From the NCBI GenBank assembly GCA_963719005.1, contig CAVRAR010000014.1, positions 1,392,901-1,456,900 on the forward strand: DNA of 64,000 nucleotides. Direction: 5' to 3'. The notes beneath the pieces were generated by a model. The model searched no databases and had not been told where the DNA came from. It worked only from the letters and a program-made list of their open reading frames with translations. Both the position numbers and the translations under genes were made by a program. This document shows, piece after piece, positions 9,436 through 63,815 of the stretch; position 1 is the stretch's first letter, and the number at the start of each line of letters is the position of its first letter. The stretch is from an uncultured Planctomycetia bacterium (GTDB taxonomy: Bacteria > Planctomycetota > Planctomycetia > Pirellulales > Thermoguttaceae).

Positions 9436-10495
9436 ATGCCCCGCATTCCGCCGAACGTTGATCTGAACGAAACCGGGCCGCCGATCCCGGGGCTGATCGG
9501 CTCGGGACCGGCGATGGAACACGTCTACCGGCTGACGCGGCAGGTCGCCCGGTCGAACGCCTCGGTGCTGCTGCTCGGCGAGACGGGCACCGGCAAGGAA
9601 CTGATCGCCAAGGCGATTCACCGCCTCAGCCCGCGCGGCAGCGGCCCCTTCATCCGCGTCAACTGCGGGGCGCTCGCCGAAAATCTGCTGGAGAGCGAGT
9701 TGTTCGGGCACGTCCGCGGGGCGTTCACCGGCGCTGATCGACAACCGCACCGGACGGTTCGAGGCCGCACACACCGGCACCGTCTTCCTCGACGAAGTCA
9801 ACTCGACCAGTCCCAAGCTCCAGGTCAAACTGCTCCGCGTTTTGCAGGAGCACGAGTTCGAGCGCGTCGGCGACACGCAAACCATCCGCGTCGATACCCG
9901 CGTGATCGCCGCGAGCAACTGCGACCTGCTGGAAGAGACCGAGGCGGGCCGTTTCCGCGAAGATCTCTACTATCGGCTGAACGTGATAACGATCTACCTG
10001 CCGCCCTTGCGCGAGCGGCGCGAAGACATTCCATCGCTGGTCGGCTATTTTCTGAAGATTTACAACGAAGAGAACCTGCGGCACGTGCCGCACGTCGAGC
10101 CCGCCGCCATGCAGGCGTTGCAGGATTACTCGTGGCCGGGCAACGTGCGGGAATTGCAGAACTACATCGAGCGCGCGGTCGTCTTGGCCCCCGGCGATGA
10201 ATTGACCCGCGACCTGCTGCCCGAGGCGGTGTTGGGCGGCCGGCCGCGCCGCATCGGCCGCCTGCGGGCCGCCGACGTGGAAACGCTCGCCTCGGAACTG
10301 GTGCAGCAGGGCATCGAGACCGCCGGCGTCTCGGCCGAGAACCTCTACGCCACGGTGGTCAATCGCGTCGAGCGCGAGTTGATCGTCCAGGTGATGGCCG
10401 CCTGCGACAACGTGCAAATCAAAGCCGCCGAGCGCCTCGGCATCAACCGAAACACGCTGCACAAGAAGCTCAATGAATATGGGCTGGAGAAGTGA
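9436..10495 (+). CDS. sigma-54-dependent transcriptional activator with no N-terminal sensor/receiver domain, frameshifted
   Basis: Walker [25 protein letters not shown] motif, then after a frame change near 9725-9842 ..[21 protein letters not shown] and a C-terminal Fis-type HTH (..[15 protein letters not shown]). Confidence 0.85.
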
Positions 10496-11703: not shown

Positions 11704-12361
11704 AGTGATCGGCGAGGGTCGCACGGACGTGGGAATGGCTGGAACCTCCGACGAACCGAGCGCCCCGTTGCCGCCGAACAAAGGCGTAGTGCCGATTATC
11801 GTTCATGCACTTTGCGGAAAGCCGGATACAATGCTTGTTGTGCGACGGCAGTATGCGTCCCTCCATGGAAAAGGGAAGACACGGGCGCAGAAAGTCCACT
11901 TCGCCAAACGCCAGGCACTCTACAACAACTCTACGGGGGTCGTCTTCCTGCTCGACTCGGAAGGTGATCTTAAAGGAAGAACGAGAGAACTGATCGAGGG
12001 GCGCGACCGCCAGTATCAAGAATATCCTGCGGCAGTCGGTGTCGCTCATCCTTGCATCGAAGCGTGGCTCTTGGCCGATGCCGCCGCTGTCGCGGAAGGT
12101 TTGAATCTCGCAAAGACGCCGGCCGTCCCCGCGAAGCCGGAAGAGTTGCCGGCGCCCTGCCACGACGCGAAGAAGAATCCAAAGGCGATGTTGAGAGAGA
12201 TCGCAAAACGGGCAATCTCGGTCAGCGACAAAGACCGCATCGCCGCTATCGCGGATATATCAGTGCTTCGACAGCATTGTCCGCTTGGCTTTTCCCCGTT
12301 CGCCGATGAAGTCGAAAAGCACATTCGTCCTTTATTCCAAAAACCATGCTCTCCGGCGTAG
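11675..12361 (+). CDS. DUF4276/RloB-like (Toprim-fold) protein, putative nuclease partner of the ATPase
   Basis: N-terminal ..KVVIEVIGEGRTD.. (EGxTE/D Toprim-like glutamate) and a later ..VVFLLDSEGD.. (DxD-like). GTG start overlaps the ATPase 3' end. Family assignment is from motif memory, not a search. Confidence 0.45.
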   Translation: MTSRAKVVIEVIGEGRTDVGMAGTSDEPSAPLPPNKGVVPIIVHALCGKPDTMLVVRRQYASLHGKGKTRAQKVHFAKRQALYNNSTGVVFLLDSEGDLKGRTRELIEGRDRQYQEYPAAVGVAHPCIEAWLLADAAAVAEGLNLAKTPAVPAKPEELPAPCHDAKKNPKAMLREIAKRAISVSDKDRIAAIADISVLRQHCPLGFSPFADEVEKHIRPLFQKPCSPA

Positions 12362-13314
12362 GCACCGTCTGTTTCGCTTCCAGCTACGCGATCGCGTGGG
12401 CGCTGGAAATCTCGCGGCTGCTGTTCCGCAGCGGCGTGCGCGGGGCGATCATGCTCGCATTCGCCGCCGCGGGATTGATCGCTCATACGGCATTCCTCTA
12501 TTATCGGGCCGTCAAGGTGGTCCATGCGCAAGGCGCACCGCTGTCGAGCGAAAGGGATTGGTTCCTCGTGGCGGCTTGGGCGCTGGTCGTGGTCTATCTT
12601 TGCCTGGCAGTTCTGCGTCCGAAGATCCCTTTCGGACTGTTTCTGCTTCCGTTGGCTCTCGGGCTGATCGGCGCGGCGACTTTTTGGGCCCCGACCGAAC
12701 CGCTGGCACGCGAGCCGGCGTCGAAAATCTGGGGGGCGATCCACGGCGTCTCGATCGTGCTGGCAGTCGTCTCCGTGCTCGTCGGATTCATGGCCGGCCT
12801 GATGTACCTCGGCCAATCGCGACGGCTGAAACACAAACACCTCCCCGCCGGCCGCCTGCGGCTGCCCAGCCTGGAATGGCTGGAAAAGGCCAACAGCCAC
12901 GCGATCGTTGCCTCGATGGTGATGCTCGGCGTCGGCGTTTTATCGGGCATGATATTGAATCTGATCAATAGCGGCAACGAAGCCGCACGTCTGCGATGGA
13001 ACGATCCGGTCGTGTTGAGCACCTGGTTGATGTTTCTTTGGCTGCTGGCAGCGGTGGCGGCCATCGCGATCTACCGCCCCGCCCGAAAAGGCCGCAAAGT
13101 CGCCTACCTCACGGTCGCCAGCTTCGTCTTCCTCGTCATCATGCTCGCCGCCGGCCTGCTGATGGATAGCCGGCATTGGGGAAGAGGAGAAGGGAAGAAT
13201 GCTGAATGCGGAATGATGAATGATGAATATTCGCAGGCGTCGGCTTCACGTAATTCATCATTCATCACTCATCATTCATCATTCATCGTTCCCCCCGGAG
13301 GCCGGCCATGTTAG
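12346..13314 (+). CDS. cytochrome c assembly family membrane protein (HemX/CcsA-like), upstream of hemA
   Basis: About 8 predicted TM helices. ..LMYLGQSRRLKHKHL.. is typical of the Cytochrom_C_asm family. hemX-hemA synteny as in Bacillus. The real C-terminus probably lies before the palindrome at 13195-13288. Confidence 0.55.
   Translation: MLSGVGTVCFASSYAIAWALEISRLLFRSGVRGAIMLAFAAAGLIAHTAFLYYRAVKVVHAQGAPLSSERDWFLVAAWALVVVYLCLAVLRPKIPFGLFLLPLALGLIGAATFWAPTEPLAREPASKIWGAIHGVSIVLAVVSVLVGFMAGLMYLGQSRRLKHKHLPAGRLRLPSLEWLEKANSHAIVASMVMLGVGVLSGMILNLINSGNEAARLRWNDPVVLSTWLMFLWLLAAVAAIAIYRPARKGRKVAYLTVASFVFLVIMLAAGLLMDSRHWGRGEGKNAECGMMNDEYSQASASRNSSFITHHSSFIVPPGGRPC
13195..13288. repeat. AT-rich palindromic element (GAATGATGAATGATGAA ... 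TTCATCATTCATCATTC), family E
   Basis: Near-perfect inverted repeat arms around a roughly 30-nt centre. The same element recurs at 59078-59168. Confidence 0.7.
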
Positions 13315-14579
13315 CGCGCGTGGTCGGTTGCAGCCATCACGGCACGTCGATTGACCTGCGCGAACGGCTGGCGTTCTCGCATGAACAAGTGCGCGAGGCG
13401 CTCGATCATTGGCGGCGGGTGTTTCCCGGCGTCGAGGCGGTGCTGCTTTCGACCTGCAATCGCGTGGAGATTTACGCCGCCACCGAGCATGAAACGGAGC
13501 CGGGGCTCGATCAGATCGCCGGATTCCTCGCCCGCTTTCACGGCCTCGATCCCGGCGAAATCGCCGAGCATCTTTACCAATACAGCGACGAGGCGGCGGT
13601 GCAGCACCTGTTCACCGTGGCGTCGAGCCTCGACAGCATGGTGCTCGGCGAGACGCAGATCCTCGCCCAGGTGAAAGAGGCGTATCAGACGGCCACCGAG
13701 CAGGACAACACCGGGCCGCTGCTGCACGCCACTTTCCAGGCGGCGCTCCGCGTGGCACGGCGAGTGGCCAAGGAGACGGCGATCCACCAGCGCCGCGTCA
13801 GCATTCCCAGCGTGGCGGTCGCCGATTTCGCCCGGCAGGTCTTCGAGCGCTTCGACGACAAGCACGCCCTGGTCGTCGGGGCGGGCGAGATGGCCGAGGA
13901 ATGCCTGCGCTACCTCCGCGATGAAGGCATCCAACGGGTGACGGTCGTCAATCGGCATTTTCAACGGGCGGCCGAGTTGGCCCAGCGATGGAAGGGCGAG
14001 GCGGCGCCGTGGGAGAATCTCGCCGCGTCGCTGGCCGCCGCCGATCTCGTGGTCAGCACGACCGGCGCGACGGAACCGGTGGTCACCGCCGAGCGCTTCG
14101 CCGCGGTCGAAGCATCGCGGTTTCAGCGGCCGCTGCTGATTCTCGACCTCGCCGTGCCCCGCGACTTCGAGCCCTCGATCGGCGATCGGCCCAACGTGTA
14201 TCTCTATTCGATCGACGATCTGCAAGCGGTTTGCAATCGGAATCGCGCGGCGCGCGATCGGGAATTGCCCGCGGCGATGCACATCGTCGAACAGGAGACG
14301 ATCCGCTTCATCGCCGAGATGCGCCGGCACGCCGTCGGTCCGGTGATCGAGCGGCTCAGACAGGGCTGGCAGAAGCCGAAGGAGGAGGAGTTGCAGCGGC
14401 TGCTGCACAAGCTGCCGGAGTTGGACGATCGCGCCCGCGACGAAATCCGCCGCTCGTTCGAGCGGCTGGTGAACAAGCTGTTGCACCCGCCGCTGGAGTC
14501 GCTCCGCGACGAGTCGCGGCACGGCGTGCCGCGGGCGCTGTTGGACGCGCTGGCGCGGCTGTTCCAGTTGAAGGATTGA
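13308..14579 (+). CDS. hemA: glutamyl-tRNA reductase
   Basis: ..LSTCNRVEIYA.. catalytic-Cys motif and an NADPH-binding ..ALVVGAGEMAE... 423 aa. Confidence 0.9.
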   Translation: MLARVVGCSHHGTSIDLRERLAFSHEQVREALDHWRRVFPGVEAVLLSTCNRVEIYAATEHETEPGLDQIAGFLARFHGLDPGEIAEHLYQYSDEAAVQHLFTVASSLDSMVLGETQILAQVKEAYQTATEQDNTGPLLHATFQAALRVARRVAKETAIHQRRVSIPSVAVADFARQVFERFDDKHALVVGAGEMAEECLRYLRDEGIQRVTVVNRHFQRAAELAQRWKGEAAPWENLAASLAAADLVVSTTGATEPVVTAERFAAVEASRFQRPLLILDLAVPRDFEPSIGDRPNVYLYSIDDLQAVCNRNRAARDRELPAAMHIVEQETIRFIAEMRRHAVGPVIERLRQGWQKPKEEELQRLLHKLPELDDRARDEIRRSFERLVNKLLHPPLESLRDESRHGVPRALLDALARLFQLKD

Positions 14580-16462: not shown

Positions 16463-19113
16463 ATGAGTTGCGCAGGAGGCGCGTCTCCGATGCTCGACCC
16501 ACAACTCAGCACCGGATTGCCGGGATTGGACCGCGTCTTGCGCGGCGTTCTGCCGGGCGACAATTTCGTCTGGCAGGTGGAATCGCTGGCCGATTTCATG
16601 CCTTTTGCCAAGGCGTTCTGCGAGGCGGCGCTGGCCGAGGGCAAGAAGCTGGTCTATTTCCGCTTCGCCGACCACGAGCCGCTCGTGCCGGAATCGCTCG
16701 AGGCCGACGTCCACGTGCTGCGCGGCAACGAGGAGTTCGAGCCGTTCGTGACCGAGGTTCATCGGGTCGTTCAAGCGGCGGGAGCGGGAACGCATTTCGT
16801 CTTCGATTGCCTTTCGAACCTCGTCGACGTGTGGTTCAGCGACCGGATGCTCGGCAATTTCTTCATGCTGACTTGCCCGGCCATCTCCGAGTGCCAATCG
16901 CTGGCCTACTTCCCGCTGATCCGCCATCGGCACAGTTTTCACGCCTCGGGCCCGATCACCGAAACGACGCAGATCCTGATCGACGTGTTTCGCCATCGGG
17001 GGCGATTCTACATCCATCCGACGAAGGTCGAGCACCGTTTCTCGTCGACGATGAACATGCTGCACCGCTGGGACGGCGACCGCTTCCTGCCGGTGATGGA
17101 AAGCTCGACGACCGCCGAGGTGCTCACCTCGCGGCCCTGGGCAGGGCTGGAATCCGTTCGCCTCCGCCCCGGCGAGTGGACGCGCACGTTCTTCCACGCC
17201 GAGGAGGTTTCCGACAAGGTCCGCCGCGGAAAGCTGCCGGCCGAAGCGGCGCGGCAACTGCTGCCCGAGTTGCTGCGGATGGTGATTTCGCGCGACCAGC
17301 GCGTCATGCCGCTTGGTCGAACGCTATTTCACGCTCCCCGACGTGGTGGAAATCTGGAAACGCATGATCGGCTCCGGGCTGATCGGCGGAAAGTCGGTCG
17401 GCATGTTGTTGGCCCGGGCTATCCTGAGAAACTCCGACCGACGCTGGAACGATCTGCTCGAAGCCCACGATTCGTTCTTCATCGGCTCGAACGTGTTTTG
17501 CTCGTTCATGGTCGAAAACGGCTGCTGGTGGCTGCGGCAGAAGCAGCGCGACCCCGCCACGTTTCTCGACGGCATCGAGGAGACCCGGCGGCTCGTGCTG
17601 GCGGGCCAATTTCCCCAGTATCTCGTCGACGAGTTCGCCGAAATGCTCGATTATTTCGGGCAATCGCCGATCATCGTCCGTTCCAGCAGCCTGCTGGAAG
17701 ACGCCTACGGCAACGCCTTCTCCGGCAAGTACGAGAGCGTGTTCTGCGCCAACCAGGGGCCGCACTCGAAGCGATTGCAGGAATTCCTCTCGGCCGTCAA
17801 GACGATCTACGCCAGCACGATGAGCGAAAAGGCCCTGCGATACCGCGCCCAGCGCGGGCTGTTGGATCGCGACGAGCAGATGTCGCTGCTGGTGCAGCGG
17901 GTCTCCGGCGCCTGCTACGACACCCTGTTCTTCCCGCAAATCGCCGGCGTCGGTCTCTCGCGCAACCCTTACGTCTGGAACGAGTGCATCGATCCCGAGC
18001 GCCGGCGTAGTGCGGCTGGTGTTCGGCTTGGGCACGCGGGCGGTCGATCGCTCGGACGACGACTACACGCGGATCGTCGCCCTGAACGCGCCCGATCGCC
18101 GCCCGGAGGGCGATCTGGATTGCGTGCGGCAGTTCAGCCAGCGCAAGGTCGATCTGATCGATCTGGAGGCGAATCATCTGGTGTCGCGCGATTTCGTCGA
18201 CGTGGCCGCCGCCGGCCCTCATCTGCCGCTGCATATTTTCGCTTCCGCCGACGACGCCGATACCTCCGGCGGTGAAGAGGGGAGCGAGACGCCGAGCAAT
18301 CCGAACCTGGTTCTCACTTTCGACGAGCTGCTCTCGAAGACCCCCTTCATCGGCGACATGCGCGAGATGCTGCGCGTGCTTCAGACGGCTTACGACTATC
18401 CGGTCGATATCGAGTTCACCGCGAATTTCCCCGCGTCGGATCGCTACAAGATCAATCTCGTGCAGTGCCGGCCGCTGCAAGTGGCCGCCGACGGCGGAAC
18501 CGTCGAATTGCCCGAGTCGCTCGATCGCAACGATTGCATTCTCGAAGCCCACGGCGCGGTGATCGGCAAGAGCCGCGTCAACCTGATCGACCGGCTGGTG
18601 TACGTGGCGCCGTCGGTTTACGGGCAGCTTCCGATCCGCGACCGTTACAGCGTGGCTCGGCTGATCGGCCGGCTGTTGCACCTCGACGAGCCGAAGCCGC
18701 CGGAGCAGATCATGCTGATCGGGCCGGGCCGCTGGGGCACCACCACGCCTTCGCTGGGCGTGCCCGTCTCCTTCGCCGAAATCGACACCGCCACCGTGCT
18801 CTGCGAGATCGTCGCCATGCGCGAAGACCTCGTGCCCGACGTCTCGTTGGGAACGCATTTCTTCAACGACCTGGTCGAGATGGACATTCTCTATCTGGCG
18901 CTGTTTCCGGGCCGCAAGGGCAACTCCTGGAACTATGCGTTCTTCGAGCAGACGCCGAACCGCCTGGCGGAACTGCTGCCCAACGACGGGCGATGGTCGG
19001 AAGTGGTCCGGGTGATCGACATGCCCCGCGACGGCGCCACGCTGAAACTCAACGCCAACGCCTTGACGCAGCAGGTGCTCTGCTATCTGGACAAGTCGGG
19101 CCACGTCGTCTAA
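16463..19113 (+). CDS. large protein fusing a degenerate KaiC/RecA-like domain (no Walker A) to a PEP-synthase/pyruvate-phosphate-dikinase N-terminal ATP-grasp domain (PPDK_N) and an unknown C-terminal domain; two frameshifts
   Basis: N-terminus ..LSTGLPGLDRVLRGVLPGDNFVWQVES.. is KaiC-like but lacks GxxxxGKT. PPDK_N motifs ..GGKSVGMLLA.., ..IIVRSSSLLEDAYGNAFSGKYESV.. and ..VDIEFTANF..INLVQCRPLQV... Frame changes near 17300 and 18000. Confidence 0.55.
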
Positions 19114-19237: not shown

Positions 19238-19328
19238 CGCGCTCGGAGGGAAAAAGGGGACAGGTCCAATTTGCCGGAACGGCCCGGAGGGTGCTTCGCA
19301 CAAATTGGACCTGTCCCCTTTTTCCCGC
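19238..19328. repeat. roughly 90-bp palindromic repeat, family B copy 1 (GGGAAAAAGGGGACAGGTCCAATTTGCC..GGCAAATTGGACCTGTCCCCTTTTTCCC)
   Basis: Near-identical copy at 20449-20541. Internally a long hairpin. Core GGGGACAGGTCC is related to family A. Confidence 0.85.
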
Positions 19329-20448: not shown

Positions 20449-20541
20449 GCACGATCTCGGGAGGGAAAAAGGGGACAGGTCCAATTTGCCGGAACGGCCC
20501 GGAGGGTGCTTCGCACAAATTGGACCTGTCCCCTTTTTCCC
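20449..20541. repeat. roughly 90-bp palindromic repeat, family B copy 2
   Basis: Same sequence as 19238-19328 including the shared leader TTGCACG..CTCGG(G)AGGG. Direct-repeat orientation. Confidence 0.85.
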
Positions 20542-20586: not shown

Positions 20587-21993
20587 ATGGAGGTGGCGAT
20601 GTCTGGTTGGCCGTTTCGTTTCATCCATGCCAGCGACCTCCACCTGGAACGGCCGCTGATGGGCGTGGCCGAAGTGCCCGACCATCTCCGCGATCTGTTT
20701 CTCGAAGCCCCCTACACGGCGGCGCGACGGGTGTTCGACGCGGCATTAGTCGAGGATGTCAAATTCGTAGTTCTTTCGGGCGGTGTCGTTGCGCCGGGAG
20801 GTTCCGGTCCGCGGGGACCGTTGTTCCTGGCCGAGCAGTTCACCCGGCTGGCGGAACGGGGGATCGCCGTCTATTGGGCCGGCTCGGCGACCGATCCGCC
20901 GGAGGTCTGGCCGGCGTCCGTCCGGCTGCCGCAAAATGTTCATGTTTTCCCTCGGGGTCGAATCGAGGAACTGGTGGTGCAGGGCGATGGCGGGGCGAAC
21001 GTGAAGGGAAGCGTCAAGGGGGACAGTCCCATTTTCGCCGAGACGAAAATCGGGACAGTCCCCGACACGAAAACTGGGACAGTCCCCGGGCCGCTGGCGC
21101 GAGTGGCGGGCGTCAGTCGCGATGAGCGGCGACCCTGGCAGCCCACCGACTTCCAATCCGATCCCGCCGGTCTGTACACGATTGTCGTCGCCCACGGCCA
21201 GCCCGATCTAGCGGTGCTGCCAACCCGCGGGATTCACTATTGGGCCTTGGGCGGGCGGCACGATCGAAGCACGCCGCTGTGCGCCGCTGCCGGCGGCGTT
21301 TTGCACGCCAGCTTGGAGACCGCCCCGGTTTTGCCGCAATCATCGGGCACTTCGCAAGTGGCCCATTATTGCGGCACGCCACAAGGCCGGCGGCCCGAGG
21401 AGTGCGGCATTCACGGCTGCACGCTGGTGCAAGTCGACGAACAACGCCAGACGCGAACCAGCCTGATTCCGACCGACTCGGCGCGTTGGATCGGCGAGCG
21501 GCTGCTGATTGACGAAACCACGACGGCCGAGGAGTTGGAATCGCGGCTCCGCGAGCGCATGCACGCGCTGTTGGAAGCGACGCCGGCGGTGGCCCTGCTG
21601 ATCTCGTGGACGATCGCCGGCCGCGGCCCGCTGCTGGGCTCGCTGCGGCGCGGGGACGCGGCCGACGGGCTGCTCGATCGGCTCCGCGGCGACTACGGCT
21701 ATCGACAGCCGGCCGCGTGGAGCGTGGCGATCGAGGTCGAGCTGTCCGAAACGCTGCCGCCCGAATGGTACGAACAGGAGACGATTCGCGGCGACTTTCT
21801 GCGGGCGATTCGCCAGTTGCAGATGAACCCCGACGAGCCGCTGGCGTTGGAGCAATACCTGGCCGAGGCGCATCGGGCGGGCACGCTGGCCGCGGCGGTC
21901 GCCTTTCCCGGCAAGACGGCCCGCGACGGCGTTTTACGCGAGGCGGCGGCGCTGGGCGTCGATCTGCTCAGCGGCGAGGAGGCCCAGGCATGA
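20587..21993 (+). CDS. SbcD/YhaO-like calcineurin-type metallophosphoesterase (DNA repair exonuclease subunit)
   Basis: ..FRFIHASDLHLE.. phosphoesterase motif I. Stop overlaps the start of the downstream ATPase (ATGA). Carries an in-frame family-A palindrome insertion at 21018-21088. Confidence 0.7.
   Translation: MEVAMSGWPFRFIHASDLHLERPLMGVAEVPDHLRDLFLEAPYTAARRVFDAALVEDVKFVVLSGGVVAPGGSGPRGPLFLAEQFTRLAERGIAVYWAGSATDPPEVWPASVRLPQNVHVFPRGRIEELVVQGDGGANVKGSVKGDSPIFAETKIGTVPDTKTGTVPGPLARVAGVSRDERRPWQPTDFQSDPAGLYTIVVAHGQPDLAVLPTRGIHYWALGGRHDRSTPLCAAAGGVLHASLETAPVLPQSSGTSQVAHYCGTPQGRRPEECGIHGCTLVQVDEQRQTRTSLIPTDSARWIGERLLIDETTTAEELESRLRERMHALLEATPAVALLISWTIAGRGPLLGSLRRGDAADGLLDRLRGDYGYRQPAAWSVAIEVELSETLPPEWYEQETIRGDFLRAIRQLQMNPDEPLALEQYLAEAHRAGTLAAAVAFPGKTARDGVLREAAALGVDLLSGEEAQA
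21018..21088. repeat. palindromic element, family A (GGGGACAGTCCCATTTTCGCCGAGACGAAAATCGGGACAGTCCCC plus an extra half unit), in-frame inside the sbcD-like gene
   Basis: Hairpin seen directly. Translated in-frame as ..GDSPIFAETKIGTVPDTKTGTVPG... Confidence 0.85.
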
Positions 21994-24900
21994 AAATCAC
22001 GAACCTCGACGTCGATGGCTACGGCGTTTGGAGCGGCCTGCGGATCGAACGCTTCTCCGACGCCCTGAACGTCTTCTACGGGCCGAACGAGGCCGGCAAA
22101 ACGACGCTGCTGCAATTCATCCGCTCGATGCTCTACGGCTTTTCGCCGCAGCGGCAGCGAGTATTTGCCGCCGCTGCATGGCGGACGGCCCGGCGGAACG
22201 CTCGACGTGGCCGGACCGCACGGCCGCTTCCAGATCAGCCGCCACGATTCGGCCGCCGACGGCACGCCGGGCGAGCAGCTTACGCTGACCGCTCCCGACG
22301 GCACCCGGCAGGGCGAGCATTTCGTCAAGGTGCTGCTGTCGAACGTCGACGAAACGGTCTTCAACAACGTCTTCGCCGTCGGCCTGCGCGAAATCCAGGA
22401 GTTGGCCACGCTCGGCGACACCGAAGCAGCCGAACTGCTCTACAATCTCACCGCCGGGCTGGATCGCGTCTCGCTGGTCGAGGTGTTGCAGGAGTTGGAC
22501 GGCCTCGCGCAACCGCATCCTCGACGCCGCCGGCCGGCCGTGCCAGGTGCTGCAACTGCTGGCCGATTATGAGAAGCTTCGGGCGGAGATCGACGAGCTT
22601 GGCCGCGGTCGGCCATCGCTACGGTCACGTGGCCGCCGAACGCGAGCAACTGCACGCGGAAATCACGCAACTCGAAGAAGAAGCCAATCGCATCGAGCGG
22701 CTTGCCCGCGTGACCGACCTGGCCCTGGCGGTGCGCGACCGCTGGACGCAGCGGGCCGCGCTCGACGAGCAATTGTCGGCGATCGGGCCGCTGAAGATCA
22801 TGCCGGAAGCGGCCGTCGAGCGGCTCGACGCCCTCAACGCCCGAATCCAGAAGCACCAGGAACACCTCGACCGCTTCGCCCGGCAGAGCGAGGCGCTTGC
22901 GGAGCGAATTCGCCGGGCTGGCCGTCAACGAGTCGCTCTGGCGTCAGGCCGCGCGGATCGAGGCGTTCAAGGAACAAGAGCCGTGGATCGCGCAGTTGCA
23001 GGGCCAGATCGGCGAGCTGGAGAAGGAAATCGCCGGCCTCGGCGCGGAATTGACCGCCGAGAGCGAGCGGCTGGGGCTGGGCGCTGAGAGCGTCAAAGAG
23101 TGCGGCGAAGGGGACAGTCCCATTTTCGCTGACACGAAAATCGGGACAGTCCCCCTGCTGCCGGAGATTTCGGCCAAGCGGCTTGCGTCGCTTCGATTGC
23201 CGGCCAAGTTGGTGCAACAGGCGCGACGGCGATTGCAGGAGGCGCGGCAAGCGGCCGCGCGGGCCGCCGACAACGTTCACGCGCTCGCCGAGCAGATCGA
23301 AACGGCCCTGGCCGAGCATGGCCAATCGAACCTGACTTCCGCCCTGGACGCCGCGGGCAATCTCGTCTCGCAGTACCGCCGCCGCGTGCAGATCGACGAG
23401 CGGCTCGACCAGTTGGCTCGCCATCGGACCGAACTGGAGGAGCGGAGCCGCAATTGCAGCGACCGGCAACTGCTGCCCGTCAATACGTTGGTCTGGACTT
23501 GGCGCCATGTTCGTCGTCGGCATGGTGCTTGGTGCTGGCGGGGCTCTTCCTGTCGGGCCCGATCACCGGCGGGATCGGCTGGGGATTGGTAGTGGTGGGG
23601 CTTGGCGGCATCGGGGCGGCCGTCGGCAGCAAGACGTTGATCGAACGCTCGAACGCCAAGCAACTCGAAGCCTGCCAGAAGCAACTCGCCACGCTGAAAT
23701 CGCAGGTCGAGCAGACCGAGGACGACCGCGATACTTTGGACGCCCAACTGCCGCGCGGCGGAGGGCCGATCGTCAGCCGGCTTCAGACCGCGGAGAGCGA
23801 CTTGGCTGCCTTGGAGGCAATCGCGCTCGCAGGACGCCCGGCGCGCCGCAGCACAGCAAGACGCCGACGTCGCCGCACGCCGGGCGGACGAGGCGGAGCA
23901 GTCGCTCAAGACCGCGCGACGACGCTGGCGCGAGGCGCTGGCCGCGGCGGGACTTCCCGAACACAATCGCCCCGAAACAGGCTCGCCGGCTGGTCGAGCG
24001 CGGCGATTGGATCGCCGAAACGCAGCGGCGTCTTGCGCAGCGCCGCGAGGAAGCTCGCCCGGCGGCAAGCGGAATTGGATTCCTTCGCGGCCCGGGTCGT
24101 TCAACTTGCCGCGGATGCAGGGGTGTCGCTCGCCTCGCTCACCTTGCTCGACCAGTTGAGCGAGCTTGCCGAGGCCGCCGCGCGGCAGGCGACGTTTGTC
24201 GAGCGCCGCGAGGAGATTCGCCGTCAAGCGGCGGCGCCTTCGTGCCGGACAAAGCAAGCACGAGGAGGCGATCGGCCGCCAGAAACACCGCCGCCGGCAG
24301 TTGTTCATCGAGGTCGGCGTCAAGGACGAGCAGGAGTTCCGCCAGCGGGCGTTGGAGTGCGCCAGGACCGACGTGCTGCGGCGGCAACGCGAGGCGGTCG
24401 CCCACGACATCGAAGCGGCGCTGGCCTCGCAATGCTCCGAAGACGCAATTCGACAGCAGTTGGAAGCCGACTATCCCGGCCTGCTCGAGGGGCGATCGGG
24501 CGAGTTGCGGCAGCGGCTGGCCGGCATCCAGGAGCAACTGCACGGGCTGCTGGAGAAGCGCGGCCGGCTGAGCGGGCAATTGGAATCGCTGGCCGCCGAC
24601 CGGCGAATGGCCTCGAAGCAACTCGATCTGGCCGTGCTGGAAAAGCGGCTCGAAGACGCCGTGCACCGTTGGCAAGTGCTGGCCACAACCTGCCGCATCC
24701 TCGACGTGATCCGCGAGGCCTACCAGCAGCATCGCCAGCCGGAGACGTTGCAGGAGGCATCCGTCTATCTCGACCGGCTGACGCAAGGGCATTACCGGCG
24801 GGTGTGGACGCCGCTGGGCGATCGCTCGCTGCGGGTTGACGACGCCGAGGGGCGAGCCTTGCCGGTCGAGTCGCTCAGCCGCGGCACGCGCGAGCAGCTT

Positions 24901-25395
24901 TTCCTGAGTCTGCGGCTGGCCTTGGCGAGTTCGTACGCCCGGCGAGGGTCGCCGCTGCCGCTGGTGCTCGACGACGTGCTGGTGAACTTCGACGCCGAGC
25001 GGGCGAAGGCGGCGGCCGCCGTTTTGCGCGATTTCGCCGCCGAAGGGCATCAACTGCTCGTCTTCACCTGCCACGAACACATCCTCAAGTTGTTCAAGTC
25101 GCTGAAGGTTCCGGTCAGCCAATTGCCCAACAACGCCGAGCCCGGCCCGGCGGTCATCGTGTTGCGGCCGCAGGGCGACGATGACGAGAAACCGAAGCGC
25201 GAGAAGCCGCCGCGTCCGCGGCGCAAGACGGCGGCCAAGCAAGAGATACCCGGGCCGGATGACGACGGATTCCGCGAGGACGGCGGGGAAGAGGAGATCG
25301 GGGACGTGGACGAAGTCGCCGACGAGGACGATTCGCTCTGGGAAGGCGAAGAGGACGAGAGATTCGGCGAGCTCGACGACAGCGCGGCGGCGTAA
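21991..25395 (+). CDS. SbcC/YhaN-like SMC-type AAA ATPase, about 1130 aa, several frameshifts
   Basis: N-terminal Walker A YGPNEAGKTTLLQFI. Long coiled-coil middle. C-terminal ..LVLDDVLVNFDAERAKAA..LLVFTCHEHIL (Walker B/D-loop/H-loop). Frame changes near 22150, 22550, 22900, 23500 and 24200. Confidence 0.7.
23109..23156. repeat. palindromic element family A, in-frame inside the sbcC-like gene
   Basis: GGGGACAGTCCCATTTTCGCTGACACGAAAATCGGGACAGTCCCCC, translated as ..GEGDSPIFADTKIGTVPLL... Confidence 0.85.
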
Positions 25396-25445: not shown

Positions 25446-25522
25446 GTGTGCCACTGCTTGGAACAAGCAGTGCCGGGGCAGCAGGTTACGCCCCACACTG
25501 CTTCTGCGAAGCAGTGGCACAC
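25446..25522. repeat. palindromic element family C (GTGTGCCACTGCTTGGAACAAGCAGTGCC..CACTGCTTCTGCGAAGCAGTGGCACAC), intergenic between convergent genes
   Basis: Near-perfect 77-bp palindrome. Second copy at 38847-38923 lies inside a CDS. Could act as a bidirectional terminator here. Confidence 0.8.
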
Positions 25523-25558
25523 TGGTGGCCAATATCGCTGCACGGCGAGAAATGCGGG

Positions 25559-36131: not shown

Positions 36132-36303
36132 ACGGCAAGTATACGATGCTCGGACAAGTGGGGCGGTGGAATCGCGGGTGTTGAGTGTCGGATATGTACG
36201 ATCGGAACGCCCCGCGACCGCGGTCGCGGGGGATGAGCAGCGACGCCGTTTCACCCCGCGACCGCAGTCGCGGGGCGTCTGCCGATGCGCCGTAACGAAC
36301 GCA

Positions 36304-36790: not shown

Positions 36791-38026
36791 ATGACCTCCT
36801 ATATGCGATTCCAAATCAGCCTCTTATCGTTGATAATCATCCTTATTGCGGCCGGTTGCAGCGGCCCGATGGATGCCGCCGCCGCAACCAAGCCGGGGAC
36901 GAAGCCGAAGGAGAAAGCCCCAATGTCGTACGTGCGCGTTCGAGTCATCGGTGCCGATGGCAAGCTCACCGGCCCGGTGGAAGTTCCCAAAGTCGTCCTT
37001 TCCGACGCCGAGTGGCGGCTGCGCCTGACGCCGGAGCAATACCGCATCACCCGCGGCAAGAACACCGAAGCGGCTTTCTGCGGCGGGCTGCTGAATAACG
37101 ACAAGCCGGGCATGTACCTCTGCGTCTGCTGCAATCTCCCGTTGTTCGAGTCGAATGCGAAGTTCCACTCGGGCAGCGGTTGGCCCAGCTTCTTTCAGCC
37201 CGCGGCAAAGGAGAACATCCGCGAGAAGCGCGATACCAGCCATCACATGGTCCGCACCGAAATCCTCTGCCAGCGTTGCGGCGCGCATCTGGGGCACTTG
37301 TTCGACGACGGGCCCCCGCCGACCGGCATGAGGTACTGCTTGAACTCCGAGGCCCTGCGATTTGTCGCCACCGATCAATTGAAGACTATCGCCGAGCCCG
37401 ACGCGGCGCTGAAGGGGACAGTCCCATTTTCGCTGAGACGAAAATCGGGACAGTCCCCCGAGCGAGCCGAGGCGGTCTTCGCCGGCGGCTGTTTCTGGTG
37501 CGTCGAGGCGGTCTTTCGGCAGCTTAACGGCGTTCTAGACGTCACCAGCGGCTATGCCGGCGGAGACGCCAGCACCGCCAACTACGCGGCCGTTTCGACC
37601 GGCCTGACCGGCCACGCCGAATCGGTCCGCATCGTCTACGACCCGCGAAAAATCTCGTACGAAACGCTGCTGAAGGTCCATTTTGCCACGCACGATCCGA
37701 CCAGTTTGAACCGCCAGGGAGCCGACGTCGGCACGCAGTACCGCTCGGCCGTCTTCTACGCCAACGACGAGCAAAAGCAGATTGCCGAAGCGATGATCGC
37801 CGACCTGACCGACGCCAAAGTGTTCCACCACCCGATCGTGACGACGCTGGAGCCGCTGGTGGCGTTTTATCCCGCCGAGGCCCATCATCAGAACTACGTC
37901 GCCTGTCACGCCCATGAGCCCTACATCCGCTCCGTGGCGCTGCCGAAAGTGGCCAAGGTGCGGGCGAAATTCAAGGACTTGCTGAAGAAGCCGAAAGTGG
38001 CGGAGCCAAAGTCCATCGCACGCTAG
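36791..38026 (+). CDS. msrAB: bifunctional peptide-methionine sulfoxide reductase MsrB-MsrA (lipoprotein)
   Basis: Lipobox LIAAGC. MsrB/SelR motifs ..CGGLLNND..YLCVCCNLPLFESNAKFHSGSGWPSF..RCGAHLGHLFDDGP... MsrA ..FAGGCFWCVEAVF... A family-A palindrome lies in-frame in the inter-domain linker. Confidence 0.9.
   Translation: MTSYMRFQISLLSLIIILIAAGCSGPMDAAAATKPGTKPKEKAPMSYVRVRVIGADGKLTGPVEVPKVVLSDAEWRLRLTPEQYRITRGKNTEAAFCGGLLNNDKPGMYLCVCCNLPLFESNAKFHSGSGWPSFFQPAAKENIREKRDTSHHMVRTEILCQRCGAHLGHLFDDGPPPTGMRYCLNSEALRFVATDQLKTIAEPDAALKGTVPFSLRRKSGQSPERAEAVFAGGCFWCVEAVFRQLNGVLDVTSGYAGGDASTANYAAVSTGLTGHAESVRIVYDPRKISYETLLKVHFATHDPTSLNRQGADVGTQYRSAVFYANDEQKQIAEAMIADLTDAKVFHHPIVTTLEPLVAFYPAEAHHQNYVACHAHEPYIRSVALPKVAKVRAKFKDLLKKPKVAEPKSIAR
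37423..37460. repeat. palindromic element family A, in-frame in the msrB-msrA linker
   Basis: GGGGACAGTCCCATTTTCGCTGAGACGAAAATCGGGACAGTCCCCC, translated as ..KGTVPFSLRRKSGQSP... Confidence 0.85.
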
Positions 38027-38045: not shown

Positions 38046-39623
38046 TCACGCCGCTCGGCCGAGAATCGATGCAGAAGCGGCAGTTCGTGCGTCCTTCGCT
38101 TTCGCGGCACGGACTGTTGCCCAATCCGTTCGGGCGATCAGCACCATTGCGGCCATCAGCCATGCCGTAGTGCCAAAACCGAGCAGGCCGACGCGGCCGC
38201 CGTAGGGGAGGAGAATGTAGTGCAGAATGGAGAGCACCGGCAGAATTGCGGCCATGACGATGCCCGCCCGCGGCCGGCCGTGACGATCGAGCCAGAGCGG
38301 TACGAGCAGGATGGCGGGGGCGAGAAGCAGGAAGTAATGGGCACGCGCCACCGGCGAGACCGCCAACATCGTGACGCACGACAACGCAAAGCCCGTGGCC
38401 ATGTTCAACTTGTTGCCGGGCTGCCGAGCAAGCTGAACGCCTAACGCCAGTAGGGTCAGGCCGAGCATCGCCCGCGACAAGAACAGAAATCGGTCGGAGG
38501 CCGGTGAATCCATCGCCATCTTCGGGGCGTCGAAGTTTTCGACCAGGCGATCATCGGGCCCGTCGGCGAAGACATGTGAGCCGAAGTTGCCCAATCGGTA
38601 GGCCGCGTTTTGCAGGCTCTGGTTGCGGGCGGAATGCGAATTGCCCGAGCGCGGGTCCATTCCGCCGTTGTCGGCCTTGGTGAGCATGAACCGCCCCCAC
38701 GTGTCCAAATGATGCAGGTTCGCGTTCCAACCGATCAGCATCGCCGGAACAATGAGGAAGAACAAAACCAGTCCGAGAGAAAAGCCGAAACTCGACGACA
38801 GGAAACGAAGCCCGCACAACGTGGCAAGCTCGCCCTTCTCGCTGCCGTGTGCCACTGCTTGCTCGCAAGCAGTGCGGGGCGGCGGGTTGCACTCGGCACT
38901 GCTTCTGCGAAGCAGTGGCACACCAGTGGAATCAGGGCAGACAGGAATGTCCGCCCTGCCGGCCGCCCGCCGTTTCGCATAGTTCCATGCCCATTCGGCC
39001 AGTTCCAGGAAGAGGAGAAACCCGACCGGCAGCGCCGGCACGATTTTCAATACGACGGGCAAGGCAAGCACGACGCCGCCGAGCAGCCAGGCGCGATAGG
39101 AGCGGCCGCTAAGAGTCACGCGGAGCCCCAGCAACAGCAGGTACATTTTGACGACGCCCACCTGCCCGCGTTGCAGACAGTTCAACGTCGGCAGCGCGGC
39201 GGCTGCCACCGCGGCAACGCCCAGCCAGGGAAGCCACCGCGTCCACGCGGCGCGCACCCGCGGATCTTCGTCGCAGACGATCGCCACGATTCGGCGGCAC
39301 TCGCGGTAGCAGCCCCAGCAGACCAACAGGTTCAAGAAGAACCAAACCGTCACCTGATCTTGCATCGGCAACGGATGCAGCGGGGCCAACAGCAGGGCGA
39401 ACAGCGGCGGATAGAGATAGGTCCAGCCGCGCGGATTGGCAACCTCGTAGGGCTCGCGGCCGTCGAAGAAGGCCGCGCCCGCCTCGGTGTACACCGTCAG
39501 ATCGGTCCTATGCTCTTCGGGGCAATCGGGATAGCAATATCCACGGCGGCGGACGTCGAGAAACCCCCAAACCGTCGCCGCCGCCAACAAGAGAATCAGC
39601 CATCGACCAGACCGACTACCCAT
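38046..39623 (-). CDS. GT87/DUF2029-family integral membrane glycosyltransferase (mannosyltransferase-like)
   Basis: Many TM helices. ..EPYEVANPRGWTYLYPPLFALLLAPL.. typical of DUF2029. Contains about 40 aa of in-frame palindrome insertion. Confidence 0.6.
   Translation of the reverse strand: MGSRSGRWLILLLAAATVWGFLDVRRRGYCYPDCPEEHRTDLTVYTEAGAAFFDGREPYEVANPRGWTYLYPPLFALLLAPLHPLPMQDQVTVWFFLNLLVCWGCYRECRRIVAIVCDEDPRVRAAWTRWLPWLGVAAVAAAALPTLNCLQRGQVGVVKMYLLLLGLRVTLSGRSYRAWLLGGVVLALPVVLKIVPALPVGFLLFLELAEWAWNYAKRRAAGRADIPVCPDSTGVPLLRRSSAECNPPPRTACEQAVAHGSEKGELATLCGLRFLSSSFGFSLGLVLFFLIVPAMLIGWNANLHHLDTWGRFMLTKADNGGMDPRSGNSHSARNQSLQNAAYRLGNFGSHVFADGPDDRLVENFDAPKMAMDSPASDRFLFLSRAMLGLTLLALGVQLARQPGNKLNMATGFALSCVTMLAVSPVARAHYFLLLAPAILLVPLWLDRHGRPRAGIVMAAILPVLSILHYILLPYGGRVGLLGFGTTAWLMAAMVLIARTDWATVRAAKAKDARTAASASILGRAA
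38847..38960. repeat. composite family-C (38847-38923) plus family-D (38926-38960) palindromic insertion inside the GT87 gene
   Basis: Same palindromes as 25446-25522 and 36715/41452. Translated in-frame as ..DIPVCPDSTGVPLLRRSSAECNPPPRTACEQAVAHGSEKGE... Confidence 0.8.
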
Positions 39624-40456: not shown

Positions 40457-40496
40457 ATCGAGAGTGCGGCGGCAGGCTTCTGCCAACAAGGGGGGA

Positions 40497-40595
40497 TTTC
40501 TGATTGATGATTGATGATTTATGATTGTCGATTGAACATCGGCCCAACCCTTGTGGCAATCAACAATCAGCAATTAGCAATCAACGATTATCGAT
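40497..40595. repeat. AT-rich imperfect palindrome (TGATTGATGATTGATGATT..CAATCAACAATCAGCAATTAGCAATCAACGA), family E variant
   Basis: Intergenic. Loose inverted symmetry. Similar composition to 13195 and 59078. Confidence 0.5.
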
Positions 40596-58344: not shown

Positions 58345-59076
58345 TTAATCCCGCATCTCTAATCCTTCATCTCTTATTCCCAGTCTCTTATTCTCACCCC
58401 ATCGCTCAACTAACGCATTCGCGATCCCCAATTGATCGCAGATCCGTGAAACGACGAAATCCACGAGATCGCCGATGAGTTTCACGCCGTGATAGAACGC
58501 GGGCATGGCTGGCAGGATCACCGCGCCCGACTCGGCGGCGGCGGTCATGTTGCGAAGCTGCACCAGCGACAGCGGCGTTTCGCGCGGCACGAGGATCAGC
58601 CGCCGCCGCTCCTTCAAGTGCACCTCGGCGGCGCGATGAATCAGGTTGATGCTCGTGCCGTTGGCGATTGCGCTGAGCGTGCCGCCGGTGCATGGGCAAA
58701 CGACCATGCCGTCGGTCAGGAACGAGCCGCTGGCGACCGGGGCGAGGCAGTCGCCGAAGTGATGGTAGTGGAGCGTGCCCGGCTCGCCCGCCCCCATGCC
58801 GAGCACGTTGCTCGAATCGCCGGAGATTCCGGCCATCGTTCCCAGGGCTTGCAGTTTGGGATCGCGGAGGGTTTCGCCGGCATCGAGCATCAGCATGGCG
58901 GGCGTAAAACTGTCCAGATCGACAATGAGGCCGAGCTCCTGTTTAAGCACAACCTGGCCGGCGGCGCTGATGGTCAAGTGGACGTCGCACCCGGCGGCCA
59001 GCAGCACTTCCAGCAGCCGCACCGAGTACGCCACGCCGCTCGCGCCGGTAATCGCCACGACAATGGTGCGTTTCAT
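58345..59076 (-). CDS. ubiX: UbiX-family flavin prenyltransferase (MqnL-like)
   Basis: ..IVVAITGASGVAYSVRLLEVL.. flavoprotein fold. 244 aa. Confidence 0.85.
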   Translation of the reverse strand: MKRTIVVAITGASGVAYSVRLLEVLLAAGCDVHLTISAAGQVVLKQELGLIVDLDSFTPAMLMLDAGETLRDPKLQALGTMAGISGDSSNVLGMGAGEPGTLHYHHFGDCLAPVASGSFLTDGMVVCPCTGGTLSAIANGTSINLIHRAAEVHLKERRRLILVPRETPLSLVQLRNMTAAAESGAVILPAMPAFYHGVKLIGDLVDFVVSRICDQLGIANALVERWGENKRLGIRDEGLEMRD

Positions 59077-59077
59077 G

Positions 59078-59168
59078 GGAATGATGAATGATGAAAGGTG
59101 AATGATGAATGCTGAATGATGAAGATCGCGAATGCTGGCATTCATTATTCAGCATTCATCATTCACAC
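59078..59168. repeat. AT-rich palindromic element family E (GAATGATGAATGATGAA..TTCATTATTCAGCATTCATCATTCA)
   Basis: Intergenic between ubiX and ubiE homologs on the same strand. Near copy of 13195-13288. Confidence 0.7.
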
Positions 59169-59881
59169 TTCTTTCCACAATACAGCGTTGCCACTCCAAA
59201 CGTAAACGGCCAATACTGTACCTCTTCCAGTCCCGCCGCCCGCATCCGCTCGGCCAGCGCTTCGCCCTGGGGGAAGCGGCCGACGCTCTGCGGGAGATAA
59301 TTGTAAGCGGCCTGACGGTTTCGAGCCAGGGCCTGGCCAATGCGGGGCAAAACGTGCTGGAAATACCAGCCGTACATCGCCCCCAGCGGCCAGGCGGCGG
59401 GCGTCGAGAACTCCAGCACCGCCGCTCGTCCACCGGGCAGGCACACGCGGACCATTTCCCGTAGCCCGGCGTCGCTGTCGGCCAGGTTGCGTAAACCGAA
59501 CGCTACGGAGACGATCTGAAACGTGTCGTTGGGAAACGGCAGGCGGAGCGTGTCGGCTTCCAACAGCGTAATGCCCGACTCCCCCAGCGCGCCCCCGCGG
59601 CGGCATTTTTCCCGGGCGATCGCCAGCATCGGCTGGCAGAAATCGGTGCCGATGACGGGCACACTGCCCTTCGACGCCTTCCAGTACGCCAACGCCAAAT
59701 CCGCGGTGCCGGTGCAGACGTCGAGGATCGGGGCGTCGCCCACCGGCGGCACGAGTTCCACCGTTTTCCGCCGCCACGAGCGATCGATGCCCAGCGACAG
59801 CAGCCGATTCAAGAAATCGTACCGCCCGGCGATCTGGCCGAACATTTCCTGGATTCGGGCGGCGGATTTGTCGAGCGTCAT
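59159..59881 (-). CDS. ubiE: demethylmenaquinone/ubiquinone C-methyltransferase
   Basis: ..ARIQEMFGQIAGRYDFLNRLLSLGIDRSWRR.. UbiE/MenG N-terminal signature and SAM motif ..ILDVCTGTADLA... Confidence 0.85.
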   Translation of the reverse strand: MTLDKSAARIQEMFGQIAGRYDFLNRLLSLGIDRSWRRKTVELVPPVGDAPILDVCTGTADLALAYWKASKGSVPVIGTDFCQPMLAIAREKCRRGGALGESGITLLEADTLRLPFPNDTFQIVSVAFGLRNLADSDAGLREMVRVCLPGGRAAVLEFSTPAAWPLGAMYGWYFQHVLPRIGQALARNRQAAYNYLPQSVGRFPQGEALAERMRAAGLEEVQYWPFTFGVATLYCGKKCE

Positions 59882-63678: not shown

Positions 63679-63692
63679 CGCCGGCCGCTGAA

Positions 63693-63766
63693 GGGGACGG
63701 AGGAGGTTGTCGGGATAGATTTTCCCGTTATTCGGAGTTTCCTGCCGACAACCTCCTCCGTCCCCC
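63693..63766. repeat. perfect 21-bp-stem hairpin (GGGGACGGAGGAGGTTGTCGG..CCGACAACCTCCTCCGTCCCC)
   Basis: Intergenic, directly after the stop of 62956-63678. Probable terminator. The arm resembles the variant A element at 62283-62300. Confidence 0.6.
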
Positions 63767-63815
63767 TCCGCCACCAACAGTCGCCTTGCCCGGATATCTC
63801 CATACATATTCTCCC

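Follow-up and report, generated by a model that had tools for sequence, protein, structure and literature searches.

Hairpin-forming twin-core repeats within conserved genes of a Planctomycetia bacterium

How does one short palindrome come to lie inside several conserved genes of the same bacterium while their reading frames stay open? This question is raised by a stretch of 64,000 nucleotides (nt) from an uncultured member of the Thermoguttaceae (Planctomycetota; contig CAVRAR010000014.1, positions 1,392,901 to 1,456,900), hereafter called the window. The names of homologs likewise put the host among Thermoguttaceae/Pirellulales. A first-pass annotation of the window had noted the same hairpin of roughly 45 bp in an sbcD-like gene, an sbcC-like gene and the linker of MsrB-MsrA, and a longer-loop variant in a UbiD-like gene. 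Both observations were borne out. The first three copies were found at the places given for them and form one repeat family, and the longer variant lies on the minus strand, nested within a larger hairpin (62274-62394). The copies are likely to represent a short, non-autonomous, hairpin-forming repeat of the REP (repetitive extragenic palindromic) or MITE (miniature transposable element with inverted repeats) type, which survives in genes at tolerant loops and linkers.

Twin-core hairpins and their reading frames

All four hairpin elements of the window were located inside open reading frames (ORFs):

20992-21087, plus strand: copy 1, in the SbcD/Mre11-like gene, a 96-nt in-frame insert with three cores (5' extension 20992-21018; cores 21020-21030, 21052-21062 and 21076-21086; inner arms ATTTTCG/CGAAAAT)
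23108-23154, plus strand: copy 2, in the SbcC/Rad50-like gene (cores 23111-23121 and 23143-23153), translated (E)GDSPIFADTKIGTVP
37412-37458, plus strand: copy 3, in the MsrB-MsrA interdomain linker (cores 37415-37425 and 37447-37457), translated KGTVPFSLRRKSGQSP, in a different frame
62293-62358, minus strand: copy 4, a long-apex variant in the UbiD-like gene (cores 62347-62357 and 62294-62304)

The core, GGGACAGTCCC, has 11 bases. When one mismatch was allowed on both strands, 18 matches were found in the window against 1.03 expected (standard deviation 1.10, maximum 5), and none of 100 dinucleotide-preserving shuffles of the window reached this number. Folding of copies 1 to 4 as single-stranded DNA gave z values of -3.9, -4.8, -5.2 and -4.3, respectively, with none of 200 shuffles equally stable. 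Repeat finding grouped the three short copies into one family and detected the duplicated right arm of copy 1 (repeats D1 and D3).

The boundaries of the element were refined from the flank consensus, in which A-R-G precedes the first core and C follows the last; this consensus was taken over the 5' and 3' sides of 48 copies. The resulting consensus is A-R-G-GGGACAGTCCC-ATTTTCG-(loop of 4-30 nt or apex hairpin)-CGAAAAT-(C/T)-GGGACAGTCCC-C. Two near-palindromes of 12-13 nt, GGGGACAGTCCC(C), thus surround the inverted inner arms ATTTTCG and CGAAAAT and a short loop. The central A lies on the same strand in both cores, resulting in an A.A mismatch in the long hairpin, and a one-base bulge precedes the right core. 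Except for this central base the 12-13 nt end cores are inverted, giving the terminal inverted repeats by which MITEs are recognized. The flanks of the 48 copies contained neither a GTAG/CGTC tag at the element end, CGTC being present only near the apex of some variants, nor a consistent direct repeat of the kind left by target duplication.

Copy 1 is larger than the 45-mer. Its 5' extension encodes GANVKGSVK, its right arm is duplicated as a 24-nt unit, and the whole is translated as GANVKGSVKGDSPIFAETKIGTVPDTKTGTVP. Copies 2 and 3 differ by 1 nt over the region spanning both cores; the flanking genes are 80-92% identical to those of relatives. In copy 4 the core at 62294-62304 reads AGGACAGTCCC, the apex hairpin is ACCACGGC-TTC-GCCGCGGT and the translation is KGTVPSSTTTASPRCPQKLGQSP. 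This long-apex variant was also present in a second locus, L105, and among the long variants the apex hairpins differ in sequence yet remain self-complementary.

According to the first-pass annotation, each copy keeps the frame open and adds a short peptide. The open frame was confirmed in all four ORFs, with the sbcC copy in frame only together with its local flanks (22897-23497). The peptide given, GDSPIFA[E/D]TKIGTVP, proved correct for SbcD and sbcC and not for the other two genes, which encode KGTVPFSLRRKSGQSP (MsrB-MsrA) and KGTVPSSTTTASPRCPQKLGQSP (UbiD). In SbcD and sbcC this DNA encodes GDSPIF..GTVP; MsrB-MsrA and UbiD have GTVPFS..GQSP from it, and orthologs with the element on the opposite strand have GDCPNFR..NGTVP. 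Since more than one frame and both orientations are used, what is constrained is the DNA and not the peptide. Among 41 distinct variants, 26 were free of stop codons in all six frames, compared with 2% of composition-matched shuffles and 8% of mirrored hairpin shuffles. The G4/C4-rich cores encode Gly...Pro tetrapeptides in every frame (GDSP, GTVP, GQSP, GDCP and GLSP), and tetrapeptides of this Gly-x-x-Pro type suit loops and linkers. By our tally, about 16 genic copies were in sense and 8 in antisense orientation, a difference that, judged by eye, would not be significant. A shared ancestral peptide, named by the first-pass annotation as an outcome that would overturn its reading, was ruled out because most orthologs carry no insert and the same DNA occurs in several frames.

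Sites in the four host genes

The gene carrying copy 1 was assigned by structure:

20599-21993, plus strand: SbcD/Mre11-like nuclease of 464 amino acids (Foldseek matches to Mre11/SbcD structures, E ~1e-11, probability 1.0)

The protein had no Pfam match at E <= 0.001, and its profile matched no PDB sequence, so that a fold search was needed. The AlphaFold 2 model (predicted local distance difference test, pLDDT, 78.5; predicted template modelling score 0.76) places the element in a loop between two beta strands. The pLDDT fell below 50 only in residues 133-154 and 224-251, which correspond to the element and a second lineage-specific insert. Most SbcD orthologs have 410 amino acids and are without the element. 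In the closest one (P0001, 91-92% identical; locus L001) ...CDA is followed directly by GPLARV..., where the window has 32 extra residues, or 96 nt at the DNA level. Copy 1 is a clean insertion, the only clean case of the four. In a neighbor-joining tree of SbcD, the two proteins with an element at this codon (window and P0004) fell into different sub-clades, each with an element-free sister. Two independent gains would be more parsimonious here than one gain followed by at least four precise losses.

The second sbcD insert, of about 23 amino acids and common to the window's sub-clade, is itself a hairpin (21332-21376). Its left arm repeats, in inverted form, the conserved sequence next to it that encodes HYCGT, and the hairpin looks like a templated inverted duplication.

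Copies 3 and 4 lie in genes with clear domain matches, and copy 4 is accompanied by further palindromes:

36809-38026, plus strand: bifunctional MsrB-MsrA (SelR and PMSR domains)
61359-62852, minus strand: UbiD-family decarboxylase of 497 amino acids (Pfam domains UbiD_N, UbiD and UbiD_C)
62274-62394, minus strand: outer hairpin of a second palindromic family, GGGGACGGAGGA...TCTTCCGTCCCC, with copy 4 nested in its loop
62399-62419, minus strand: adjoining third palindrome GCGCAGGCGAGACGCCTGCGC, translated GAGVSPAR in the UbiD-like protein
63687-63771, strand undefined: the window's other copy of the GGGGACGGAGGAGGTTGTCGG...CCGACAACCTCCTCCGTCCCC family, a short way downstream of an ORF ending at 63678

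In MsrB-MsrA the element occupies the interdomain linker between the Pfam matches to SelR (residues 73-186) and PMSR (residues 221-372). This linker is rich in Ala and Pro and hypervariable, and in the window it has exactly the same length as in the nearest orthologs. The linker DNA of the ortholog in L121, of equal length, resembles a decayed copy of the element. In three orthologs a member of the same family lies a few residues upstream, in the opposite orientation and translated as GDCPNFRLGENGTVPF. Upstream of the gene, two adjacent copies of another palindrome, CCCCGCGACCGCGGTCGCGGGG, were observed at 36207-36293.

The UbiD-like protein with its insert is identical to a public protein, P0241, encoded on a 1.65-Mb contig. 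The insert aligns between residues 151 and 173 of E. coli UbiD (2IDB), which form a loop, and because of it the Pfam match loses its first 38 positions. At this site 70 of 121 orthologs have a loop of 7 amino acids and 44 of 121 have more than 10, and at least six palindrome-derived peptide families were found across the orthologs. The outer family at the site also occurs in the form GGGGACGGAGGA...TCCTCCGTCCCC, and in L122 the outer hairpin is present without the nested copy.

The gene carrying copy 2 follows sbcD and is interrupted by single-base insertions:

21990-25395, plus strand: SbcC/Rad50-like ATPase (AAA_27/AAA_23 at the N-terminus, SMC_N at the C-terminus)
22158, 22503, 22601, 22895, 23497, 23527, 23830, 23959, 24053 and 24226, plus strand: +1 insertions in sbcC by comparison with two relatives

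All ten insertions were found in the window only. Five of them lie directly 5' of CT[CT]G; the two relatives have their own, different indels in sbcC and none in sbcD. In both a gene with a PPDK_N domain (17313-19113) and a sigma-54 activator gene (9436-10495) the coding sequence is divided over overlapping ORFs that differ in frame. As the insertions are window-specific and other genes of the window are split too, the frameshifts, including those of sbcC, would most simply be long-read assembly indels, and sbcC as a real pseudogene, with loss of the hairpin nuclease, was set aside. A GC-frame scan for frameshifts was too noisy to be used alone. At the sbcC site, three relatives (the window, L001 and L002) have three different palindromes at one position. 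In L001 a 53-nt insert of two GCAGCCGGGACGGCTGC units (13460-13512) is not a multiple of three and breaks the frame of the sbcC-like gene.

Distribution and comparison with known repeats

When one genome per species was scanned for the twin core, more than 118 loci at the least were obtained. About 40 of the listed loci carry the ATTTTCG/CGAAAAT inner arms, most of them from Planctomycetota; among the matches listed, a few loci of Sphingomonadales and Acidobacteriota have a similar layout. The 49 copies in other planctomycete loci were classed by a crude coding test that gave the expected calls for genic and intergenic sites of the window: about 9 were coding, 32 were non-coding and 8 lay at contig edges, so that about 32 of the 41 classifiable copies look non-coding. 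Clear intergenic copies, downstream of genes, were seen in L054. A phmmer search of the 34-amino-acid insert against 1.84 billion proteins yielded six significant hits, so few because the query is too short, and they were used for examples. The insert was also found in UvrD/AddA-like helicase, LysS-like, BtuF-like and methyltransferase-like proteins, named by eye from their motifs. Three of the phmmer hits, the helicase included, have the 24-nt arm in two or three copies. In the UvrD/AddA-like helicase P0361, from another metagenome, the insert (residues 57-96) comprises the VKGSVK 5' extension and three TKIGTVP units and is placed between helicase motifs I and Ia. An assembly artefact was ruled out by the recurrence of the element across assemblies with several contig-naming conventions in NCBI, ENA, JGI and IMG/VR. 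No match to Rfam 15 was obtained at the gathering score in the window or in 10 element-carrying loci.

The twin core was also present in other phyla and in viral contigs of IMG/VR (L123-L190), with the following counts:

55 stretches: twin core with the same central base
7 stretches: true inverted twin core, central A then T
8 stretches: true inverted twin core, central T then A
8 stretches: composition-matched control palindrome GGGTCAGACCC, twinned
4 stretches: composition-matched control palindrome GGGCAATGCCC, twinned

One viral locus, L150, contains GGGACAGTCCC and GGGTCAGACCC twin-core elements within 140 nt of each other (12081-12217). The viral and non-planctomycete copies belong to a few types with a common layout of core, inner arm, variable apex hairpin, inner arm, bulge and core. 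In low-GC contigs, where long ORFs can be trusted, many copies lie within long ORFs. Pfam-confirmed in-frame hosts on phage contigs were a Mu-like portal protein, a large terminase (between its two domains), a Mu-type transposase, an NAD-dependent ligase and a ParB-like protein. A contig of a Prevotella metagenome-assembled genome (Bacteroidota) has an in-frame copy in an RsmB/F methyltransferase (Pfam-confirmed), between the catalytic and PUA domains; two other low-GC genome loci have the same element type in a U32 peptidase (Pfam-confirmed) and an AMP-binding enzyme. In Nitrospirota (Thermodesulfovibrionales) an Eco57I-type restriction-modification methylase (Pfam-confirmed) carries a copy in frame. 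No flanking genes common to the non-planctomycete loci were found. The in-frame copies outside the planctomycetes are in these loci:

L139, 724-3781
L160, 4911-7022
L156, 2723-4450
L029, 5263-7998
L099, 6516-7823
L113, 3001-4842

Tentatively, and with somewhat less than even confidence, the planctomycete element might be placed as one branch of a cross-phylum superfamily of "twin-core" hairpins, with the layout core GGGACAGTCCC, inner arm, variable apex hairpin, complementary inner arm, bulge of 1-3 nt and core, the central base usually being the same. Instead of having a common ancestry and recognition protein, the types may have converged on an ORF-friendly palindrome. If the superfamily holds, a widespread protein recognizing the hairpin would be implied, and in these elements phages would carry a general source of insertions into the loops and linkers of proteins.

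Among known repeats, the Rickettsia palindromic elements (RPEs) had been proposed in the first-pass annotation as the nearest model, and this likeness was supported by copies that are in frame, absent from orthologs and located at tolerant sites. Like RPE-1 to RPE-8, the element is a dispersed hairpin-forming palindrome that lies in frame in conserved genes, where it would be translated into additional peptide at places that the fold tolerates, and is also found in non-coding DNA. The RPE family is restricted to Rickettsia and has units of roughly 100-150 bp. The element described here, in contrast, occurs in Planctomycetota and other phyla, has units of about 45-96 nt and a twin-core architecture; it was set apart from RPEs on these grounds. 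RPEs are ancient fixed insertions, whereas the sites studied here show recent turnover and recurrent use.

Similar resemblances link the element to the GTAG/CGTC REPs. In both cases the units are GC-rich stem-loops of small size; some of them are located within ORFs and encode about 20-30 extra residues, while the majority are extragenic in the REPs and look so in the element. Both form dimers, clusters and nested arrangements. Repair and replication genes are hosts in each case, uvrA/B/D and recBCD for the REPs, SbcD, SbcC and the UvrD-like helicase here. Unlike these REPs, the element has no end tag, longer stems and twin direct-oriented cores that give the A.A mismatch; membership was ruled out by the absence of the tag. 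We know of no association between the element and a RAYT (REP-associated tyrosine transposase). Intragenic GTAG/CGTC REPs have been reported from genomes including Opitutus terrae, with a bias for DNA-repair genes, in which RPEs too are frequent (Di Nocera et al. 2013, PMC3733652). The first-pass annotation knew of no such behaviour in Planctomycetota-like genomes. The core GGGACAGTCCC was not found in a bacterial context in the open-access literature searched. As to repeats of this kind, in-frame REP-type repeats are known in the PVC (Planctomycetes-Verrucomicrobia-Chlamydiae) superphylum from O. terrae, and REP families from Rhodopirellula baltica (PMC3733652). In-frame palindromic repeats as a kind are therefore already known, the PVC superphylum included, and are not new.

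REPINs, the paired form of REPs, also consist of two short palindromic units that form a larger hairpin, and they appear to share with the element a high copy number and long vertical persistence. Both are presumed to depend on recognition of a single-strand hairpin. REPINs, however, lie almost entirely outside genes and are linked to a RAYT gene present in single copy. No RAYT-type (HUH/Y1) transposase was seen among the genes inspected near copies, where no dedicated search was made. MITEs are, like the element, non-autonomous; they can carry open frames and add peptides, and they are found in hosts and their viruses. In-frame examples are the Coxiella MITEs (PMC5896051) and the enterobacterial RU elements (PMC2759123), and MITEs common to viruses and hosts have been described (bioRxiv 10.1101/2024.01.18.576219). 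MITEs are defined by terminal inverted repeats, target-site duplications and a parent insertion sequence, whereas here the whole unit is the hairpin and no duplication was evident in the flanks compared; inverted ends are the one MITE hallmark demonstrated for the element. PARCEL repeats (PMC2996958), a 25-residue tandem protein repeat, are a different thing and were rejected. In sum of its features, the element works like RPEs and intragenic REPs but belongs to neither.

Origin of the copies and other palindromes

If the copies are a mobile hairpin repeat, as we consider likely, genic copies would persist if their length preserves the frame and additional residues are tolerated at the site, and they would then be transcribed and translated as extra disordered peptide. 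Spread would occur in trans, by an enzyme recognizing the twin-core hairpin. Hot spots would reflect recurrent insertion together with selection, and local turnover would proceed by replacement, nesting and arm duplication. The genic copies are found at loops and interdomain linkers, and such sites hold different palindromic families in different orthologs. Mapping of the inserts onto structures, a check suggested at first pass, agreed with this placement: a disordered loop in the AlphaFold 2 model of SbcD, the gap between Pfam domains in MsrB-MsrA and the loop aligned to 2IDB in UbiD.

Several observations weigh against this reading. No target-site duplication was evident at the sole clean pair of filled and empty sites (window vs L001), where the junctions share only a GGG(G/C)CG resemblance. 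The first-pass annotation expected clean insertions at loops or linkers when orthologs were aligned, and of the three sites compared in this way only SbcD gave one. The MsrB-MsrA copy is an equal-length replacement and not a pure insertion, and the UbiD copy is nested in another element and not simply inserted; gene conversion or template switching may contribute at both. No transposase or other mobilizing gene was found among the genes inspected near copies (8-20 kb per genome). All four window copies are genic, whereas most copies elsewhere look intergenic, and the census of coding and non-coding copies depends on a GC-frame test that is crude and was applied to DNA of high GC content. Indel errors are present in the assembly, and that the inserts are translated is deduced from intact ORFs only.

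The lack of a target-site duplication would also fit template switching at hairpins (quasi-palindrome formation) combined with gene conversion, by which degenerate copies would be refreshed in place and would not be transposed units. The L121 linker, with the window's length and the look of a decayed copy, the inverted HYCGT-coding copy at 21332-21376, the right arms duplicated in 24-nt units and the apex hairpins that are unrelated in sequence yet self-complementary point the same way. Template switching yields local palindromes, however, and cannot account for one 45-mer at unrelated loci and in many genomes; in the closest relative the SbcD site is empty, leaving nothing to convert, and the family is also found on phage contigs. 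We regard this explanation as unlikely for the family. It is improbable, too, that the hairpins are kept for a function in their genes, whether as an mRNA or DNA structure at which transcription or translation would pause between domains, or as a site bound by a host protein. Close orthologs are functional without the element, unrelated palindromes occupy the same sites in different relatives, both orientations occur in genes and Rfam gave no match. These points stand against the strong conservation of cores and inner arms across many species, the covariation of apex stems with pairing kept, the frequent location of genic copies at domain boundaries and the excess of same-centre over true inverted twin cores of about 4:1, all of which a functional hairpin would explain.

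The identical direct-repeat cores around a hairpin bear a superficial likeness to translational bypass elements (T4 gene 60, mitochondrial byps), with the cores as take-off and landing sites, and the inserts might in principle be skipped in this way or removed by RNA excision. Such intervening sequences are very hard to reconcile with the data. The elements contain no stops, the 96 nt of the SbcD insert and the equal-length replacement in MsrB-MsrA keep the frame on read-through, and a skip from core to core, of 32 or 56 nt, would put SbcD out of frame; by this frame arithmetic and the absence of stops, translational bypass was ruled out. Scarcely credible is the remaining explanation, that the copies are assembly artefacts or ancestral protein sequence. 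It could draw on the indel errors of a long-read-style assembly, and it is opposed by the many independent assemblies, by the public record identical to the UbiD protein with its insert and by the majority of orthologs without inserts.

If the mobile-repeat reading is correct, selfish hairpin repeats appear to have supplied conserved enzymes of Planctomycetota recurrently with new sequence in loops and linkers, and apparently those of other phyla and phages as well, with the same few permissive sites hit repeatedly. For annotation, the inserts shorten or split domain matches and inflate variation in protein length, and in high-GC genomes they probably seed spurious small ORFs. Conservation of the twin core suggests that a sequence-specific factor recognizes it; to our knowledge, nobody has described one. 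That hairpin repeats are found inside the genes of the hairpin-cleaving SbcCD nuclease and of a UvrD-like helicase recalls the preference for DNA-repair genes published for intragenic REPs.

Other palindromic families of the window behave alike, as repeat D13 shows:

38875-38929, minus strand: D13 copy, in frame in a GT87 glycosyltransferase ORF, translated ...STGVPLLRRSSAECNPPP...

This copy adjoins a further palindrome-derived stretch, GRADIPVCP, and a second D13 copy lies at a gene boundary (25474-25528). A perfect 82-nt hairpin, GGGAAAAAGGGGACAGGTCCAATTTG...CAAATTGGACCTGTCCCCTTTTTCCC, occurs twice in intergenic DNA with 100% identity (19245-19326 and 20460-20541). It was also found in L002 (8655-8732) with 98.7% identity, the genes of L002 being only about 82% identical. 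AT-richer hairpins of GAATGAT-type heptad repeats were observed at 13192-13296, 40492-40583 and 59076-59171.

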